Shown: positions 44,740 through 51,395 of the stretch, in pieces
Position numbering within the stretch: the first letter of the stretch is position 1
Layout: each line of letters begins with the position of its first letter
Origin: Patescibacteria group bacterium
GTDB lineage: Bacteria > Patescibacteriota > Kazan-3B-28 > UBA10110
Assembly (NCBI GenBank): GCA_043802665.1
Contig: JAZDKW010000020.1
Location: 7,036 to 71,035, forward strand
Direction: 5' to 3'
Length of the DNA: 64,000 nucleotides
Translations under genes and position numbers: made by a program
The notes under the pieces: generated by a model
The model's input: the letters and a program-made list of their open reading frames with translations, nothing else
Told to the model about the DNA's origin: nothing
The model's database searches: none

Positions 44740-45225
44740 TTATTTCTTTGGTTGTTTTTGTCTGCAATTTTTCCCCCTGTATGTTTCAGTTAAACTATGG
44801 CAGTTCGGGCAAAGAATTCTTAGATTTTTAATTCGATTATCGTGCCTGTCCCCATTAATGTGGTCTAACTCTAATGGCAAATGTCCGGTAGCACTACATT
44901 TAGCCCAGCCACATTGTTCACAATACATAGGTTTTAATTTGGCACTAAATAATCTTTTTTTAAGCTTGAAGCTTTGGAAGTTACTATTTTTAGTGAGAAT
45001 TTTATCTAGGGGAATGCGCGGTTTACCGATACCTTTCATGCCAGCATTCCAGCCTTTACCTCGAAAGTGTTGAATATCGAGATTAAATTCTTGAATATAT
45101 TTCTGAATCTGTTCATAATTGCCACCAGCAGGACGCAATCCTAGTTTTAGCAATACTTGGCGTATGCTAAAAGATTTTCGCACAGCTTGCCTCAATGCTT
45201 TTATTGTCCATTTTCTTTTACGCAT
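44740..45225 (-). CDS. HNH endonuclease (free-standing homing-endonuclease-like)
   Basis: C-terminal HNH/zinc motif CEQCGW...HLPLELDHINGDRHDNRIKNLRILCPNCH. The ORF-track N-terminus overlaps tRNA-Leu, so the start is placed at the internal MRKRKW (45225), preceded by a TATAAT box. Confidence 0.65.
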   Translation of the reverse strand: MRKRKWTIKALRQAVRKSFSIRQVLLKLGLRPAGGNYEQIQKYIQEFNLDIQHFRGKGWNAGMKGIGKPRIPLDKILTKNSNFQSFKLKKRLFSAKLKPMYCEQCGWAKCSATGHLPLELDHINGDRHDNRIKNLRILCPNCHSLTETYRGKNCRQKQPKK

Positions 45226-45285
45226 ATTATCATTATACGATAAGGGTAAAGGCATAAGTAATGCTATTTTTGTGCGTGTTCTATT

Positions 45286-45369
45286 TGGTGGGCAGAGTGG
45301 GACTCGAACCCACAAGCCTTGCGGCACAGCATTTTAAGTGCTGCGTGTATACCATTCCACCACCTGCCC
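45286..45369 (-). tRNA. tRNA-Leu(UAA), type II with long variable arm, CCA encoded
   Basis: Manual fold: GGGCAGG acceptor, anticodon loop CUUAAAA, long variable arm, T-arm GGGTTCGAGTCCC. Confidence 0.75.
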
Positions 45370-45383
45370 ATCAGGTATTTATG

Positions 45384-45460
45384 TGGAGCGGGAAACGGGA
45401 TTCAAACCCGCGACCTCTTCCTTGGCAAGGAAGCGCTCTAATCAACTGAGCTATTCCCGC
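45384..45460 (-). tRNA. tRNA-Gly(GCC), CCA encoded
   Basis: GCGGGAATAGCTCAGTTGATTAGAGCGCTTCCTTGCCAAGGAAGAGGTCGCGGGTTTGAATCCCGTTTCCCGCTCCA. Confidence 0.8.
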
Positions 45461-45536
45461 AGAAAATCTATTCTTAATTTATCACATATTAATGCAGTCA
45501 AGATTTTATTCAATCAACCCCGAAGGGGCCCCGTTG

Positions 45537-45556
45537 GGGATGAGCTATTCCCGCGT
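45537..45556. repeat. duplicated 14-nt fragment of the tRNA-Gly 5' end (TGAGCTATTCCCGC)
   Basis: Exact match to 45447-45460, lying ~80 bp away. Confidence 0.5.
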
Positions 45557-45592
45557 AGCAGTTTAATAAAAAGTTTGAATAAAGAGATTGTG

Positions 45593-45886
45593 TGGTGCCG
45601 CGGGACGGGATCGGACCGCCGACGCATGCCTCTTCCGAAGCATTTGGACTATCTCATTCTCCATTTAGCAATGGAGATTGGGCGCTAATGTGGGATTATC
45701 GTTGGGACTCACCCACTAGTCTCTACACCTTCCTCGCTATCATATGCCCGGCGAGGCTTGGCTCGGGATTGTCAAACACATGGCGTGTGTTTGGTTTTCC
45801 CCGAATTCACCCAATTTTTCAATCCTAGTTACCTAGGAAAGCCCCGAAGATTCCAGGGCATCGCTCTACCACTGAGCTACCGCGGC
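45593..45886 (-). tRNA. tRNA-Phe(GAA), interrupted between U33 and G34 by a group I intron
   Basis: The 5' exon is 45855-45886, GCCGCGGUAGCUCAGUGGUAGAGCGAUGCCCU. The 3' exon is 45593-45635, GAAGAGGCAUGCGUCGGCGGUCCGAUCCCGUCCCGCGGCACCA. Joined, they give a canonical 75-nt tRNA with anticodon loop CUGAAGA. The T-loop UCCGAUC is atypical. Confidence 0.6.
45636..45854 (-). ncRNA. group I intron (~219 nt) in the tRNA-Phe anticodon loop
   Basis: The 5' exon ends in U and pairs with the intron GGGG (P1). The intron UCUUC pairs with the 3' exon GAAGA (P10). The P7 halves GUAGAGACUAGUG (R-like) and GAGAUAGUCC (S-like, consensus AAGAUAUAGUCC) are present, and the intron ends in G. There is no internal ORF. 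Confidence 0.6.
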
Positions 45887-46788
45887 AATATTTATTCACA
45901 CCAAAATAATATCAGCATTAAACCTATTTTTCAATGCCGTATCGGTAGAACAGAAAACTAGATTTCTAATTAACTGTTCCACAATTAGTTATAAAATAAA
46001 CCCTTGATCTTCGGGGGATTTTGGGTTGTGGTATAGGAGGAAAGTGGGTGTGGATATCACAGAAAGTGGCTCTGGGAGTATAATATTCTTGACAGGAACC
46101 TCAATTAGGAGTATGCTTAAATTATAAGGGTGATAAACAGATTTGGTTGATTCGGCAGATTAAAAATTAGGTCTAAGAGGAGAGACGCGAGATCGGCGTT
46201 ACGGATCACATTAGACCTGGGTCTAAATAATTTAGATCTAAGGAAGCTAGCAGAGGTCTGCTACGCGACTGCATGGCTAATGGCTACTAACTGTAAATAA
46301 TAAATTTTATCGTCATTCTGGCTTGTCCAGAATCGTATAAATAAAAGAGCAGTTGGGAGATCTCTTCTTTGGTAAAAATACGAACGAAGAGATCTCTTGA
46401 CTGCTTTTTTGTTTACCCCGTAGCTCCACTACTAGCGGATGGTATCGGGGTTTAGTCGCAGGAGACGCATTCTGTTTGTCATCCTGAGCGGATCCGCCAG
46501 TTGGCGGAGGAGTCGAAGGATCTGTCTGTAAGATCCTGACCTGTGCCAGCATGACTGAATTGAAAAATTGTTTAGTCGCAGGAGACGCGAAGAGGAGAAA
46601 TATAAATGGGGAATCCAGGCACATAATTATGTAGGCCTAGGTAATTTCTCTCAAGCACTCATCTTCGCATCTCCTCTGATTATGTTATTCGTCATCCTGA
46701 ACTTGTTTCAGGATCTCAGATATCACATCGGAGAGAACATTTGAAAAAATCTGGTGACGCAATGTCGCCATTCCCTGGGAGGGGAAAA

Positions 46789-46938
46789 ATGGAAGAGAAA
46801 GACGGACAAGAAACTCAACAAAGTACTTCTGATGATTCGACGGGCACGACGGATTCGTTCGATGGTGATCGGTCGTGGGACACAGACCGCAATAACCACC
46901 GGTTACCCCTTGGGAATGGGGGGTATGTGTTCGCATAA
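46789..46938 (+). CDS. possible small acidic protein (49 aa)
   Basis: GGGAGGGG SD before the ATG; low-complexity D/T/S-rich product; weak. Confidence 0.25.
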   Translation: MEEKDGQETQQSTSDDSTGTTDSFDGDRSWDTDRNNHRLPLGNGGYVFA

Positions 46939-47202
46939 AACGGCTAGGGGAGAGCCATCAATCTCCCCAAAATCTTTCTTTGCGGATTCTGGCATTTCGG
47001 GTCGAATCTGCAGGGGTTCGACAATGATCGGACGAAACTTTCCCTAACGGGAAATGATTAACAATATCTCTGAGCCCTCAGCCTCTGCGTAGAGATACGG
47101 ATTGGCGCTATAGGGCAAGTGGAATCGGTCGGACTGCCACTTTAAATAAAGAATCCGAAAATGGGAGAGCTCTGTTGCTGGACACGCATTACCCAGCAAA
47201 CC

Positions 47203-47265
47203 ATCTCTCCCCCTCTTCTGAGTTTGTTACTTCGATAAGATAAAGTAGCAACTTCAGATGAGGGC
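47203..47265 (+). repeat. cassette hairpin element H0 (degenerate): CCCTCTTCTGAGTTTGTTAC ... AACTTCAGATGAGGG
   Basis: Inverted repeat read directly; followed by the conserved CGAATCTTGAAAATT motif. Confidence 0.55.
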
Positions 47266-47394
47266 TTGCTCTCAAAACGAATCTTGAAAATTAAATTCAA
47301 TCCAACTCTTGTAGAGAGCAATTTGGGTATAAATTATTTTCTGAAATGTTCGTATCCAAGTTGCTCTCTAAGAAGAGCAAAGGAGGCATGTCAA

Positions 47395-48588
47395 ATGCCT
47401 AAATTAATTAAGGTCGCCATTGGTGGCCCACCGAAATCCGGCACGACATGCTTTCTTGCCGGGTTATGCGAAAACCTTCCGAGGTTTTCGCGCTATCTCT
47501 TCCGGGCTTGCCCGGACGGAGAGGGAACTTGGACTTACAGGTCCGAGGCCTCTGCCAAGTATCGTCGCAAGGGGCAGTTCGCCCCGGGGCTGGTTGACTG
47601 GTACTGCCAGTCGCTAGCCAAGTGCGTGATGGCCCCGATCGTCCTCGTGGACATCGGTGGCCGTTGCTCTGATGAGAATTCCCGAATCCTTCGCGAAGGC
47701 GGAGTACAATTCGGGATAATCCTTTCCCCATCTCTGGAAGCAATTCCAGAATGGGAGAGATTTTTCCGCTCTTGCGGAGTGGAAGTAATCGCTCGAGTAA
47801 TCAGCGATTACAACGGCACTGATGACATTACTATTGATGCCGACCCGATGGTCGTGCATCATCTTGATCGGGAGGTAAGCGCAGAGGAATTGGCAACTCG
47901 GCCAACCATTCAGAAGGTGGCTGAAATTATTTTGGGGTTGATCGCCCCGGAGGAAACAGAAATGAACATTCTTTCTTCATTGATTACTCCCGACGGGGTC
48001 ATCACGGTTGCCGCTCTTGCGGCCGCCCTCGGTAAGACTGCAGTTGAAAGGGCTTTGCCGAATGGCAAAGTCATCCCCCAGATCGTCTGGGAGGGTGCGG
48101 ACTTGGTCCGCATCGCCGAGCTCCTGCACAACCGCTCGGCAGAAATGCCGGAAGTTGTGAGGATCGACGGCCCCGCTCCGGCGTGGCTCGTTGCGTCGCT
48201 CACTCACGAGTGCCATCCGCGGATGGTGGCATTGAATAGTGCTGACGGATTCGTCAATGTTGGGTGCCGCCGGCCTTCCGGCGGCGGCGAGGGGATCAAC
48301 TTCAAGGTTGAGACCCGTCCCGACGACTGGAAAGTCGTCACATTCGAGCTGGACCCCTCGGTCCCGCTCTCTCCGGCCGATCTTGACCGGATTGCCCCAC
48401 CTGACCTGGGCACCCTTGACTCGAAAGTAGTCCTTTCGGGTCGGGGGCCAAACTGGCTCTTTGCCAGTTTGGCCTTGGCATACCACGGCCGCGCCGGGGC
48501 CGTGGCCCGCTTCCAGCCGGGGACTGGTAGCACGGTCGTCTGGACCCACACTCAGAGTGTGGTACTCGGGGATAATATCCCTGAGTAA
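47395..48588 (+). CDS. P-loop-containing protein of unknown function (cassette gene A)
   Basis: SD AAAGGAGG 7 nt before ATG 47395; the ORF track extends to 47266 but no SD lies there. The N-terminus has a Walker-A-like KVAIGGPPKSGTT. The C-terminal half carries a duplicated motif GPAPAWLVASLTHECH / GRGPNWLFASLALAYHG. GC is ~60%, against ~40% for the window. Confidence 0.6.
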   Translation: MPKLIKVAIGGPPKSGTTCFLAGLCENLPRFSRYLFRACPDGEGTWTYRSEASAKYRRKGQFAPGLVDWYCQSLAKCVMAPIVLVDIGGRCSDENSRILREGGVQFGIILSPSLEAIPEWERFFRSCGVEVIARVISDYNGTDDITIDADPMVVHHLDREVSAEELATRPTIQKVAEIILGLIAPEETEMNILSSLITPDGVITVAALAAALGKTAVERALPNGKVIPQIVWEGADLVRIAELLHNRSAEMPEVVRIDGPAPAWLVASLTHECHPRMVALNSADGFVNVGCRRPSGGGEGINFKVETRPDDWKVVTFELDPSVPLSPADLDRIAPPDLGTLDSKVVLSGRGPNWLFASLALAYHGRAGAVARFQPGTGSTVVWTHTQSVVLGDNIPE

Positions 48589-48627
48589 GAATTGCACATT
48601 TTCAGAGGGAGAGCTTCGTCTCTCCCT

Positions 48628-48799
48628 CCTTCATCCGAGTTCACCATTATTCATTGTCCGTCATTCCGGCCTACGAGCCGGAATCTAGATCCTGAATCGT
48701 ATTAATTATACGATCCTGGACAAAGCCAGGATGACGAAGTAAGGAATACTTCATCAGTTCAGGATGACGCATAAGTAAATGATGAATTCAGATGAGGGA
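48628..48799 (+). repeat. cassette hairpin element H1: CCTTCATCCGAGTTCACC ... AATGATGAATTCAGATGAGGGA, with a ~130-bp MITE nested in its loop
   Basis: Arms read directly. The insert at 48646-48777 has terminal inverted repeats CGTCATTCCGG/CAGGATGACG. The element is preceded by the hairpin GAGGGAGAGcttcgtCTCTCCCTC. Confidence 0.65.
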
Positions 48800-48956
48800 G
48801 AAATCTCTTAACACCGAATCTTGAAAATTGAAAATTATTTCTCTTGTGGAGAGTCACATCCTCACAATCTATTTTGTGATGAGCTGACTCTCCATCAGGA
48901 GAGAAAAATATAGCCGGAATGCCCTGTAAACCGGTCAAGGGGCAAGGAGGCCAAAA

Positions 48957-49766
48957 ATGGCCAAAAAAATATTACGTCTGAATGAAGAGCAGTTTAATCT
49001 GCTCAGGAACGCTGTGCGAGAGAATCAGATTAAACGGGATAAGTTGAAGAGTCGGATGGTAGAAATACTATCCGAACTCAACTCTCTTTGCCGAGGCTTT
49101 ATTTTCTCGGATGGTACTTCTGTTGTGTCAGTTAATTTCTATGCTTTCTGGTCTTTTTCGACCGGGAGATGGAATTGCGAGGATCTGGGGTATAAGTCGG
49201 GTTTTCCGACTATCCCCCAGCGCGACAAGCGTTGGCCGGAGTTGACTGTTGCCGTGCCGGAACTGTCGGCATTAATGACGGAGTATGAGTTAAACAAGAA
49301 GGCAATGGGGGAAATTGCACATCTCACCATCGCGCCTCAGTACAGGAAAGTGCGAGGGTACTATGAAGTTGACTCAACAGAGTGGGATCGTCTTGTAGAT
49401 AGCCCCAACACCTCTTCTGGATTTTTCTGGGAAACGGAAGAAAGCGGGGGAGGCATGACAAACACCGGCTATAGCCAGGTTGTTTGTCTTCTGAGCGGTA
49501 ATCCCGCAATTGCATATTGTCTTGGACATCACGCAAATGATGTGCATGCGCGGTTCCGGTTCAGGTCCAAGTTCAGGTGGATTGAAGTTCGTGTTAAACG
49601 CTATCGGGAATCAGTTGAGATATCTGGTTGCGAAATGCCGAGTGGGGAAGAAATCTTTTATGCCACATGCATCGAAGAAGTTCCAGAATTTCTTCTGGAC
49701 GCCACCAAAGCGGCGATGGCCAAGGCAGATGATTATCACTGCCGGAAACCATATTTCATTTTTTGA
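48957..49766 (+). CDS. hypothetical protein (cassette gene B, 269 aa)
   Basis: SD AAGGAGG before the ATG; no recognisable motif. Confidence 0.6.
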   Translation: MAKKILRLNEEQFNLLRNAVRENQIKRDKLKSRMVEILSELNSLCRGFIFSDGTSVVSVNFYAFWSFSTGRWNCEDLGYKSGFPTIPQRDKRWPELTVAVPELSALMTEYELNKKAMGEIAHLTIAPQYRKVRGYYEVDSTEWDRLVDSPNTSSGFFWETEESGGGMTNTGYSQVVCLLSGNPAIAYCLGHHANDVHARFRFRSKFRWIEVRVKRYRESVEISGCEMPSGEEIFYATCIEEVPEFLLDATKAAMAKADDYHCRKPYFIF

Positions 49767-49795
49767 CCACCTTGTTCTTTCTTGGGTAATAAGAC

Positions 49796-49860
49796 GGGGG
49801 CCTTACGGCCCCCCTTTCATCTGAGTTTACCATCTGTAAATGATGAATTCAGATGAGGGA
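49796..49860 (+). repeat. terminator-like hairpin GGGGGCCTTACGGCCCCC followed by cassette hairpin H2 (CCTTTCATCTGAGTTTACC ... TGAATTCAGATGAGGGA)
   Basis: Read directly. Confidence 0.65.
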
Positions 49861-49913
49861 ATCATCTCTCAAATTTTCTCGGCAAAATGCCGAAATGAAC
49901 CTTGAGGTGTAAC

Positions 49914-50171
49914 ATGGCTGTTGGTAAGTGGACCACTACTGTTATCGGAGTATATTGGGACAAAATGATCGACGGTATAGCTGAGGAATTTGTCTATAGG
50001 CTATACAAAGAGTTATCTGCCGAAGAGATCAATATACTTGTAGATGAGGCGTTCAAAAATATGTCTCTTTTGCCACCACAACTTGCAGATTGTATAAAAG
50101 CAACGGTTGTTGAAATGAAGAACCGAAAACCGATAATTGCTTATCCTCCTACCACGGGAGAATCTGGATAG
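49914..50171 (+). CDS. hypothetical small protein (cassette gene C, ~85 aa)
   Basis: SD GAGGTG before ATG 49914; the ORF track starts at 49902. Confidence 0.5.
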   Translation: MAVGKWTTTVIGVYWDKMIDGIAEEFVYRLYKELSAEEINILVDEAFKNMSLLPPQLADCIKATVVEMKNRKPIIAYPPTTGESG

Positions 50172-50177
50172 ATTCTC

Positions 50178-50245
50178 CCCCTTCATCCGAGTTCAGCATT
50201 CGGCAAGCTCATGACAGAGCACGAATAATGAATTCAGATGAGGGG
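50178..50245 (+). repeat. cassette hairpin H3: CCCTTCATCCGAGTTCAGCAT-(27 nt)-AATGAATTCAGATGAGGGG
   Basis: Read directly. Confidence 0.65.
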
Positions 50246-50287
50246 CAACTCTCAATTCGAAATTTGAAAATACAAGGAGGCACGAAA

Positions 50288-50572
50288 ATGCCGAAAAAGC
50301 CATGGTTCATTAAGATTTTATGCTACGGGATGATTATCGGGAGCATAGCATTGATTGTTGTTATGCTCTCGAGTGGTTTCTATTCTGAACTATTCATTTC
50401 CCCAGCGGAGTCACGCTGGTGGTGGGTGCTAATTAACCCAACACCAGAAGCTATTGATCACGGGACACTGTGGATGTGGGTGCTTGCAGTGTTCCCAGTT
50501 GTGACGGCGATACTTGGGGTTCTGGGTTTGGGTCGTTGCTCCCTCGGGGCATCATCCCCCTTGGTCTCTTAG
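50288..50572 (+). CDS. small two-TM membrane protein (cassette gene D, ~94 aa)
   Basis: SD AAGGAGG before ATG 50288; the upstream part of the ORF-track version just translates hairpin H3. Confidence 0.55.
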   Translation: MPKKPWFIKILCYGMIIGSIALIVVMLSSGFYSELFISPAESRWWWVLINPTPEAIDHGTLWMWVLAVFPVVTAILGVLGLGRCSLGASSPLVS

Positions 50573-50607
50573 CTCTCTGCTATCCTCTTTGTTCTTTTGT
50601 GGATACA

Positions 50608-50673
50608 CGGGGGCCTTACGGCCCCCCCTTCATCCGAGTTCAGCATCTACAAATGATGAATTCAGATGAGGGA
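50608..50673 (+). repeat. terminator-like hairpin CGGGGGCCTTACGGCCCCC followed by cassette hairpin H4 (CCTTCATCCGAGTTCAGCAT-tacaaa-TGATGAATTCAGATGAGGGA)
   Basis: Read directly. Confidence 0.65.
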
Positions 50674-50733
50674 GATAAGCACGCAAAAAATATAATAAAG
50701 AATATAATAAAAATAGATTAACAAATAGTCGGT

Positions 50734-50916
50734 GGGAGGCTGTAAGAAATTTGAAAGGAATTTTACCCCGTAAAAAGTTTTACTTTTTTCGGGGCGAATC
50801 AGGGTTCAATGTTTGGTCCCTGAAACCGAAAGGAAGAGGGGATTAATTTCTCTCCTCAAGAGCATCGGTTCTTGATTCGTATAATTTCAATCTAAATTTT
50901 CTTACAGCCTTCTGTT
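50734..50916. other. ~180-bp structured non-coding element bounded by the 15-bp inverted repeat GGCTGTAAGAAATT / AATTTTCTTACAGCC, with nested hairpins (CCCCGtaaaaagttttacttttttCGGGG)
   Basis: Read directly; no ORF; lies between the cassette array and the pseudo-tRNA. Confidence 0.4.
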
Positions 50917-50975
50917 GGCTATTTTTTATTGTTGTACTTTTCTGTAGAATAGATGTAGCTTATCTTTGAGAAGAT

Positions 50976-51105
50976 ATGGGCACTTAGCTCAGTCCGAACG
51001 GGACCCCTTCGGGGTTGGTTACCCGCCCGTACCGAACGGGTACGTTCGGGTGGGGAGCGTTCGGTTTACATCCGAAAGGTCGGGGTTCGCCCCGCATCTG
51101 AAGAT
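50976..51105 (+). pseudogene. degenerate tRNA-Val-like sequence
   Basis: It keeps a tRNA-like 5' end GGGCACTTAGCTCAGT and an anticodon arm identical to tRNA-Val (CGGTTTACATCCG). A ~55-nt insertion sits in the D-loop, the T-arm is truncated, and no acceptor 3' strand or CCA is present. Confidence 0.5.
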
Positions 51106-51228
51106 GTTAATGTATAACTAAACAAGATTGATCTACTATTTTTACAATATTACTGAAATAAGTAGTAGCGCGGGGCGCCCTGCGAATGCTGGGGCGAGCC
51201 CTGAATAGATATTTAACTAAAATAATGC

Positions 51229-51309: not shown

Positions 51310-51395
51310 GGACAGGTGGCGGAATGGCAGACGCGCTAGGTTAAGGGCCTAGTGAGAGCAATCTCGTGGAGGTTCAAGTCCTCTCCTGTCCACCA
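51310..51395 (+). tRNA. tRNA-Leu (type II), anticodon reads AAG in loop UUAAGGG
   Basis: Acceptor GGACAGG/CCTGTCC, long variable arm, CCA encoded. Its D-, variable and T-arms are identical to the tRNA-Leu(CAG) at 52295. The A34 anticodon is unusual for bacteria. Confidence 0.65.

Follow-up and report, generated by a model that had tools for sequence, protein, structure and literature searches.

Group I introns that interrupt tRNA genes of bacteria were screened by Williams (2020, bioRxiv 10.1101/2020.01.27.920355) in 80,413 bacterial genomes, which raised the number of tRNA intron classes from 4 to 21. The four classical ones, Leu.3Ug, Arg.5Ug, fMet.2Ug and Ile2.5Ug, all belong to subgroup IC3, and metagenomic assemblies of unnamed phyla contained 0.49 interrupted tRNA genes per genome. 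The seed alignment of that study includes the entry 'Mba55.Phe.2Ug', an intron of tRNA-Phe at loop position 2 with U(-1) and omega-G. In complete genomes of the candidate phyla radiation (CPR), tRNAs frequently contain group I introns according to Lui et al. (2021, PMC8172020). In the present study, a stretch of 64,000 nucleotides from a Patescibacteria group bacterium (assembly GCA_043802665.1, contig JAZDKW010000020.1, positions 7,036 to 71,035; the window in the following) was analyzed. With high confidence, a ribozyme of 219 nt that belongs to the Phe.2Ug class and contains no open reading frame (ORF) splits its tRNA-Phe(GAA) gene between U33 and G34; it appears to be a long-term resident and not an actively homing element, and to be unrelated to the HNH gene located nearby. 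Class, site and host phylum have been described before and the window intron is a further member of Phe.2Ug: the seed 'Mba55.Phe.2Ug' is identical to a locus of Parcubacteria GW2011_GWD2_38_12 (L005) belonging to the same intron family, hence the class is already published. An earlier note on this DNA (the original prediction) had regarded the insertion site in tRNA-Phe as not commonly described. This was overstated since Phe.2Ug was catalogued in 2020 and fMet.2Ug uses the equal loop position.

The split gene extends from 45886 to 45593 (positions of the window; the gene and all intron elements lie on the minus strand) and consists of GCCGCGGUAGCUCAGUGGUAGAGCGAUGCCCU, 219 nt of intron and GAAGAGGCAUGCGUCGGCGGUCCGAUCCCGUCCCGCGGCACCA. 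Its 5' exon (45855-45886, 32 nt) comprises the 5' strand of the acceptor stem, the D arm, the 5' strand of the anticodon stem, C32 and U33, and ends with GCCCU. The 3' exon (45593-45635, 43 nt) starts with GAAGA and contains G34, A35, A36, G37 and A38, the 3' strand of the anticodon stem, the variable loop, a T arm with C55, the 3' strand of the acceptor stem, A73 and an encoded CCA. The intron (45636-45854), inserted in the anticodon loop, begins with a G at 45854 and closes with the omega-G at 45636. The same boundaries were obtained by ARAGORN with introns enabled (-i), which reported tRNA-Phe(gaa) i(33,219) and joined the exons to a canonical cloverleaf of 75 nt including the CCA; at the predicted junction of the spliced tRNA, GAUGCCCU is followed by GAAGAGGCAU. 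The division into 32, about 219 and 43 nt made by the original prediction, the CCCU and GAAGA ends and the terminal G were exact. In default mode, ARAGORN did not call a tRNA-Phe gene at 45886-45593. Default tRNA finders thus miss the gene, and CPR genomes may wrongly seem to be devoid of tRNA-Phe, a problem that is resolved by knowledge of Phe.2Ug.

Membership of the intervening sequence in group I, as had been proposed, was confirmed by the ARAGORN call, by covariation (see below) and by the Rfam model RF00028 (Intron_gpI), the covariance-model check that the original prediction had named. The model matched positions 45864-45626 on the minus strand over its entire length (model positions 1-253 of 253) with 66.1 bits and an E-value of 1.5e-14, while sequences scoring at or above the gathering score of 50 are counted as members. 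Scanning of the local region alone gave an E-value of 2.5e-16, and a permissive Rfam scan of this region did not reveal any other RNA family. A blastn search with positions 45200-46000 against 50,697 phage genomes matched the uninterrupted tRNAs but not the intron. The window also encodes rpoB, a penicillin-binding protein, components of ABC transporters and a protein with a Csx3 domain, and is therefore chromosomal and not of phage origin. A cyanobacterial host, at first suggested by Csx3, rpoB and the classical occurrence of tRNA introns in cyanobacteria, was rejected because the HNH protein (see below) is 100% identical to an NCBI protein of a 'Patescibacteria group bacterium' MAG (metagenome-assembled genome) and nearly all relatives of the intron are from Patescibacteria.

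Relatives were collected by a motif scan with the P7/P7.1 pattern GTAGAGACTANNGGGTGAGTCCCAAC using one genome per species (185,579 species). The scan yielded 37 loci, nearly all of them in metagenome-assembled genomes (MAGs) of Patescibacteria. The hosts were Saccharibacteria, Magasanikbacteria, Paceibacterota, Uhr-, Jorgensen- and Harrisonbacteria, and a few MAGs labelled Gammaproteobacteria or Methylomirabilis. A split tRNA-Phe(GAA) with an intron of 202-291 nt at the same position was called by ARAGORN -i in 28 of the 37 loci. By a rule requiring U(-1) and omega-G together with pairing of the anticodon and acceptor stems, 31 loci could be cleanly delimited; the others broke off at the end of a contig or did not comply with this rule. 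The window and the 31 delimited homologs, i.e. 32 sequences, formed the set for the covariation analysis. The 5' exon is near-identical across the delimited homologs, most of which are from CPR, and at several loci tRNA-Gly(GCC) lies directly downstream of the split tRNA-Phe as in the window. An additional relative (L038/L040) was found by synteny, having been hidden from the scan by one loop substitution. Together with L003, L038 is the closest relative of the window intron (both 84-87% identical). The exons of L038 and the window, including the whole 5' exon, are identical at 75 of 75 positions, while the introns agree at 192 of 229 (84%), with compensatory replacements of U-A by C-G in P2 and P7.1. 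Identical exons combined with a compensated divergence of the intron are the pattern expected of a functional tRNA that depends on a functional ribozyme.

MAGs with the label Gammaproteobacteria or Methylomirabilis likewise contain this intron of tRNA-Phe (L023, L024, L025, L031 and L036). Four of these five loci belong to a sub-group in which the exon reads GAAAA (A37), the guide reads UUUUC and P9 is capped by a GNRA loop, and L025 has GAAGA (G37). These occurrences reflect either mis-binning or a spread beyond CPR. The source of the window is itself a MAG, and it is conceivable in principle that the intron-like stretch is an assembly chimera or a chance resemblance. The split gene within its tRNA cluster recurs, however, in independent assemblies from JGI/NCBI, ENA and Logan (L038, L039, L040), and the split gene was present in 30-odd further MAGs. 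Considering in addition the E-value of the Rfam match, an artefact can practically be dismissed.

To describe the structure of the ribozyme, the helices P1-P8, P7.1 and P10 were mapped from the window onto a MAFFT alignment of the 32 sequences, and the base pairs were counted. Standard pairs were found in 94.2% of the cells, compared to 36-52% when the 3' partners were slid by one to three columns. Both sides had changed at 34 of the 64 pairs, and the covariation score amounted to 0.416 versus 0.153 ± 0.007 for shuffled alignments (0 of 500 reached the observed value). For the individual helices, 76-100% of the cells were paired, the percentages of the variable P5 and P8 stems being lowered, not raised, by their imperfect alignment with MAFFT. 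Covariation was evident in P3, P5, P6a and P8, whereas P7 was invariant and P4 nearly so. At all 83 invariant columns of the alignment, the residue of the window agreed with the family.

The most informative helices are those in which the intron pairs with its exons. In P1, the exon nucleotides GCCCU (45859-45855) pair with the guide GGGGC (45845-45841), placing a U33.G wobble at the 5' splice site; the helix may lengthen into the intron via GGA:UUC. The U.G pair occurred in 32/32 sequences, U(-1) being imposed by the delimitation (as are omega-G and the GAA anticodon) but the guide G and the other P1 pairs not. Between the anticodon-stem bases and the guide, two pairs had undergone compensatory changes: CG and GC were exchanged in eight sequences and CG and AU in five. 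In P10, the guide UCUUC (45846-45850) is complementary to GAAGA of the 3' exon (45635-45631) and one of its pairs covaried perfectly: all 27 sequences with G37 in the exon have a C in the guide, and all five with A37 have a U. This exon-guide co-evolution indicates long residence at the site, and the intron appears to be inherited and to co-evolve with its host gene without actively homing. P1 (CCCU:GGGG with U.G), P10 (UCUUC:GAAGA) and both strands of P7 were found as the original prediction had assigned them.

The interior of the intron reveals a complete group I core with a P4-P6 and a P3-P8 domain and a P3/P7 pseudoknot. P2 (45823-45838) is a hairpin, UCCUAG-GUAA-CUAGGA, with a GNRA loop and double changes at all six pairs. 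The 5' strand of P3 (UUGGGUG, 45808-45814) and its partner CGCCCAA (45684-45678) were paired in 100% of the cells, with two covarying pairs. The stretch 45763-45804 forms P4 (45804-45799/45768-45763), which was 99.5% paired, around P5 (45793-45786/45780-45773), where eight of eight pairs covary. It is followed by P6 (45762-45760/45729-45727) and P6a (45756-45751/45737-45732), together spanning 45727-45762; P6a was 94-100% paired and had double changes at six of six pairs. P7, the guanosine-binding helix, is composed of G(A)GACUA (5' strand, 45717-45723), in which an A is bulged, and UAGUCC (45651-45646). It was 100% paired; the search pattern imposed the 5' strand of P7 as well as some of the P7.1 loop, but not the 3' strand of P7. 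The J6/7-P7 stretch GUAGAGACUA and the J8/7-P7' stretch GAGAUAGUCC are both present. Between P7 and the 3' strand of P3, an extra hairpin, P7.1 (45690-45716, GUGGG-UGAGUCCCAACGAUAAU-CCCAC), has a stem of 5 bp that was 100% paired with two double-change pairs, and a conserved loop of 17 nt. P8 (45658-45677) is the inverted repeat UCUCCAUU-GCUA-AAUGGAGA, which also covaries. The minimum free energy fold of the window intron alone recovered P2, P3, P4, P5, P6a, P7.1 and P8 with a ΔG of -71.8 kcal/mol (z = -2.95).

On the basis of established group I chemistry, the following course of splicing can be proposed. The precursor would be transcribed from a promoter just upstream of the gene, where a consensus-like site, TTGAAA-17-TG-TATTAT (45906-45934, minus strand; 10 of 12 matches, with TG), is located about 20 nt from the 5' end of tRNA-Phe; across the region, the total of such sites was not above that of shuffled sequences. 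The last five exon nucleotides GCCCU, i.e. the 3' part of the 5' strand of the anticodon stem with C32 and U33, would pair with the guide GGGGC to form P1, whose U.G wobble would mark the 5' splice site for the attack of an exogenous guanosine bound in P7. GAAGA of the 3' exon (the anticodon with G37 and A38) would then be aligned on the adjoining guide UCUUC by P10, and omega-G at 45636 would take the place of the cofactor in P7. Ligation of the exons would release a tRNA of 75 nt with its encoded CCA.

Several points weigh against this interpretation. A part of the invariance, namely that of U(-1), omega-G, the anticodon and portions of P7 and the P7.1 loop, is imposed by the search and the delimitation. 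The window intron is essentially devoid of a P9 hairpin, with no more than about 10 nt separating P7' from omega-G. Such a short tail is common to most members of the family, of which some possess a GNRA-capped P9. The T loop has C55 where U55 is near-universal, a possible hint at decay of the tRNA. Self-splicing is inferred here from sequence and structure, and a second, uninterrupted tRNA-Phe gene may possibly exist beyond the 64 kb of the window. Taken together, C55, the minimal P9 and a scan for tRNA-Phe that covered the 64 kb of the window could be understood as signs of a dead copy that has lost splicing or yields a non-functional tRNA, while a second intact tRNA-Phe serves translation. 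This is highly improbable, though. The exons are completely identical to those of L038 despite the 16% divergence of the introns with compensatory stem changes, and all helices of the catalytic core are intact, the window agreeing with its family at every invariant column. C55 is rarer than G37, yet it is kept in L038 and L031. Moreover, CPR genomes with an equivalent cluster have a tRNA-Phe at the syntenic position, and ARAGORN did not detect a second tRNA-Phe within the window. The interrupted gene is very probably the only tRNA-Phe(GAA) gene of this genome.

Another peculiarity of the mature tRNA is G37, since bacterial tRNA-Phe normally has A37. It could be thought that G37 is an oddity driven by the intron, which needs it for P10. 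This was ruled out because G37 is present in 27 of the 32 split genes and also in the intron-less tRNA-Phe of a Kazan genome (L041, 3147-3221; loop CUGAAGC). Hence, G37 characterizes CPR tRNA-Phe as such and is not brought about by the intron. It would imply that position 37 of these tRNAs carries a different modification or none.

An HNH-motif protein of 161 aa is encoded at 44740-45225 on the minus strand (PF13392 HNH_3, 26.9 bits versus a cut-off of 24.8). The gene is situated 368 nt from the 3' end of tRNA-Phe, past tRNA-Gly(GCC) and tRNA-Leu(UAA), in good agreement with the approximately 370 bp of the original prediction. There, the protein had been interpreted as a free-standing homing endonuclease that mobilises the intron. 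The intron itself has no room for an ORF with its 219 nt, while some copies of the tRNA-fMet intron encode an endonuclease, e.g. I-SspI of Synechocystis. Zeng, Bonocora and Shub reportedly described in 2009 that the free-standing endonuclease F-CphI mediates collaborative homing of a cyanophage psbA intron. That system resembles the window in the combination of an ORF-less group I intron and a nearby gene for an HNH-type nuclease. It differs in that the nuclease gene of the window is two tRNA genes away and shows no linkage with the intron among other genomes.

By analogy with F-CphI, the HNH protein could cut intron-less tRNA-Phe alleles and thereby bring about the spread of the intron. This idea is backed by the HNH_3 motif, by full-length similarity to the phage HNH family phrog_10822 (E = 1.7e-46), by the short distance of about 0.4-0.7 kb that separates the HNH gene from the split tRNA-Phe in a pair of related genomes (those of the window and of L038/L040), and by the polymorphic presence of the intron over CPR, exemplified by the Kazan genome L041 that lacks it. 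Nevertheless, tblastn did not detect a homolog of the HNH protein at any of the 37 loci of the motif scan (2-8 kb each) or at six viral loci with related intron cores. More than 4,200 homologs with 65-87% identity were found instead across many CPR phyla (Kazan, Magasanik-, Wolfe-, Lipton-, Azam-, Jorgensen-, Buchananbacteria and others); for a selfish homing gene, this would be unusual. In every context examined, the HNH gene lies inside a tRNA cluster next to tRNA-Leu(UAA) and/or tRNA-Cys(GCA). The homologs encode about 156-161 aa (L038 4001-4471; L041 4001-4474; L051 2193-2663; L053 3001-3471; L054 3001-3609).

The gene orders around these homologs are instructive. The window has the order Phe(intron)-Gly-Leu(UAA)-HNH, and in L038/L040 the series Val-Leu(UAA)-Leu(AAG)-HNH is divergent from Phe(intron)-Gly-Cys-Leu(CAG). 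In Kazan L041 the order is Leu(AAG)-Val-Phe(no intron)-Gly-Cys-Leu(UAA)-HNH-Leu(CAG), so that the HNH gene resides about 0.8 kb from a tRNA-Phe without intron. Jorgensen-, Azam- and Liptonbacteria share infB-rbfA-(DHH)-Cys-HNH-Leu(UAA), the HNH stop codon being 0-3 nt from the next tRNA, and in these three lineages there is no tRNA-Phe within 3 kb on either side of the HNH gene. Because the HNH gene is linked to tRNA-Leu(UAA) and tRNA-Cys and coexists with an intron-less tRNA-Phe or with none at all, collaborative homing is very unlikely. The co-evolution of P1 and P10 with the exons likewise favors long residence over frequent homing. Neither an endonuclease gene within the intron nor a tightly linked one that co-occurs with it, as is characteristic of homing introns, was found. 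Given the absence of the protein from the 37 intron loci and its conservation beside an intron-less tRNA-Phe, the mobilising role assigned to it by the original prediction is not supported. The HNH gene is a conserved member of CPR tRNA clusters and not demonstrably a part of the intron system.

Conservation of the HNH protein is unusually high for a homing endonuclease. The distance of 0-3 nt between its stop codon and the next tRNA in several phyla would fit co-transcription with the tRNA operons. One could speculate that the protein is a domesticated, vertically inherited CPR factor acting on tRNA genes or their transcripts, for instance in the maintenance or processing of tRNA loci with and without introns, or else that Phe.2Ug, as the sole way of obtaining tRNA-Phe in many CPR lineages, couples the supply of this tRNA to the availability of guanosine nucleotides, but the chance that such ideas hold is small. 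A PDB sequence search with the HNH protein did not give anything meaningful, and NCBIfam gave only sub-threshold matches of the HNH motif to IscB and ZorE. A weak tblastn match suggesting an HNH paralog at 968-1186 of the window was spurious, since the ORF is RecR (TIGR00615, E = 8e-76). The presence of this conserved protein in CPR tRNA operons is a less expected side result that may merit a separate study.

The tRNA cluster of the window is syntenic with those of other CPR genomes. Downstream of tRNA-Phe, tRNA-Gly(GCC) (45384-45460) and an uninterrupted tRNA-Leu(UAA) (45286-45369) were identified on the minus strand by ARAGORN and Rfam; the order Phe-Gly exists in many CPR genomes. In this tRNA-Gly(GCC), A19 (D loop AGUUGAUUA) is combined with U56 (T loop UUUGAAU), as if the G19:C56 elbow pair had changed in a compensatory way. 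L038 has a tRNA-Gly very different from that of the window, though the adjacent tRNA-Phe exons are identical. Within the Phe-Gly spacer of 132 nt (45461-45592), there is an exact copy of the 14 nt of the tRNA-Gly 5' end (45541-45554, identical to 45447-45460), followed by a GC-rich palindrome (45514-45543, CCCCGAAGGGGCCCCGTTGGGG). Since the spacer comprises only 2-27 nt in the relatives, the long version with its repeat and palindrome looks like the scar of an insertion or of a replacement of tRNA-Gly. A tRNA-Leu with the anticodon AAG is encoded at 51310-51395 on the plus strand, and L038 and L041 have one, too, in their syntenic clusters; an A34 is not common among the tRNA-Leu of bacteria. 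The segment from about 46000 to 51200 has a GC content of 0.47-0.51 compared to about 0.40 in its flanks and contains the gene (47266-48588) for a protein of 440 aa that has a Csx3 domain at its C-terminus. It parts the group Phe-Gly-Leu(UAA)-HNH (44.7-45.9 kb) from Val-Leu(AAG)-Cys-Leu(CAG) (51.2-52.4 kb), two halves that are adjacent in L038, and may be an inserted island.

The P7/P7.1 signature GUAGAGACUA-NNGGGUGAGUCCCAAC was also recognized in the group I cores of six IMG/VR viral contigs (L045-L050), around which ARAGORN did not find any tRNA gene. In two of these cores (L049 and L050), P8 is interrupted by an ORF that possesses a promoter-like site of its own. In the other four (L045-L048), the core starts at P3 right after a TTGACT/TATAAT-like promoter, and neither P1 nor P2 is obvious. 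Subgroup IA has the P7.1 element as its hallmark. Phage introns of the IA type, in which a helix lies between P7 and P3', share the signature with the window intron, although the viral copies are outside tRNA genes. This similarity suggests a kinship with IA-type phage introns, and the window intron may be IA-like.

The IC3 introns of tRNA-Ile in Azoarcus and of tRNA-Leu(UAA) in Anabaena/Nostoc resemble the window intron since they are ORF-less, about 200-250 nt long and inserted in the anticodon loop, and they have the core motifs AAUUCGGGGAAA, AAUCCCGAGCC, GGUGUAGAGACUA and GAUAGUCC in common with it. On the other hand, they occupy loop positions 5 and 3, respectively, and not position 2, and they are devoid of P7.1 and have a developed P9 with a tetraloop, where the window intron has a short, single-stranded-like tail before omega-G. 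Introns of subgroup IC3 are distinguished by a developed P9 and the lack of a helix between P7 and P3', and the window intron deviates from them in both respects. In the seeds of Leu.3Ug, Arg.5Ug, fMet.2Ug and Ile2.5Ug, the P7.1 columns of Williams' alignment are gaps. The cyanobacterial tRNA-fMet intron (fMet.2Ug; Biniszkiewicz et al. 1994) is similar to the window intron in its U33/34 site and in the formation of P1 from the anticodon stem-loop, but it belongs to another tRNA and to IC3, and P7.1 is gapped as mentioned. The 'group I introns' of 22-49 nt reported for cyanobacterial tRNA-Arg, -Gly and -Lys (2017, PMC5733544) are irrelevant because they are far below the length of a group I ribozyme.

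The closest counterpart is the Phe.2Ug seed itself. Genome, sequence, P5 and the loops of P6a and P8 differ, but the alignment did not reveal any difference at the level of the class. Since class, site and host phylum were reported previously, no new question is opened by the window intron. It adds a further well-supported case of an ultra-small bacterium that seems to rely on a ribozyme for its translation, and supplies an alignment of 32 sequences with clean exon-guide covariation. All core elements of the window intron can be aligned with those of L005, and what unites the class and the window intron are the tRNA, the insertion after U33, U(-1), omega-G, the helix plan with P7.1, the P7.1 loop UGAGUCCCAAC.AUAAU and the very short 3' tail.

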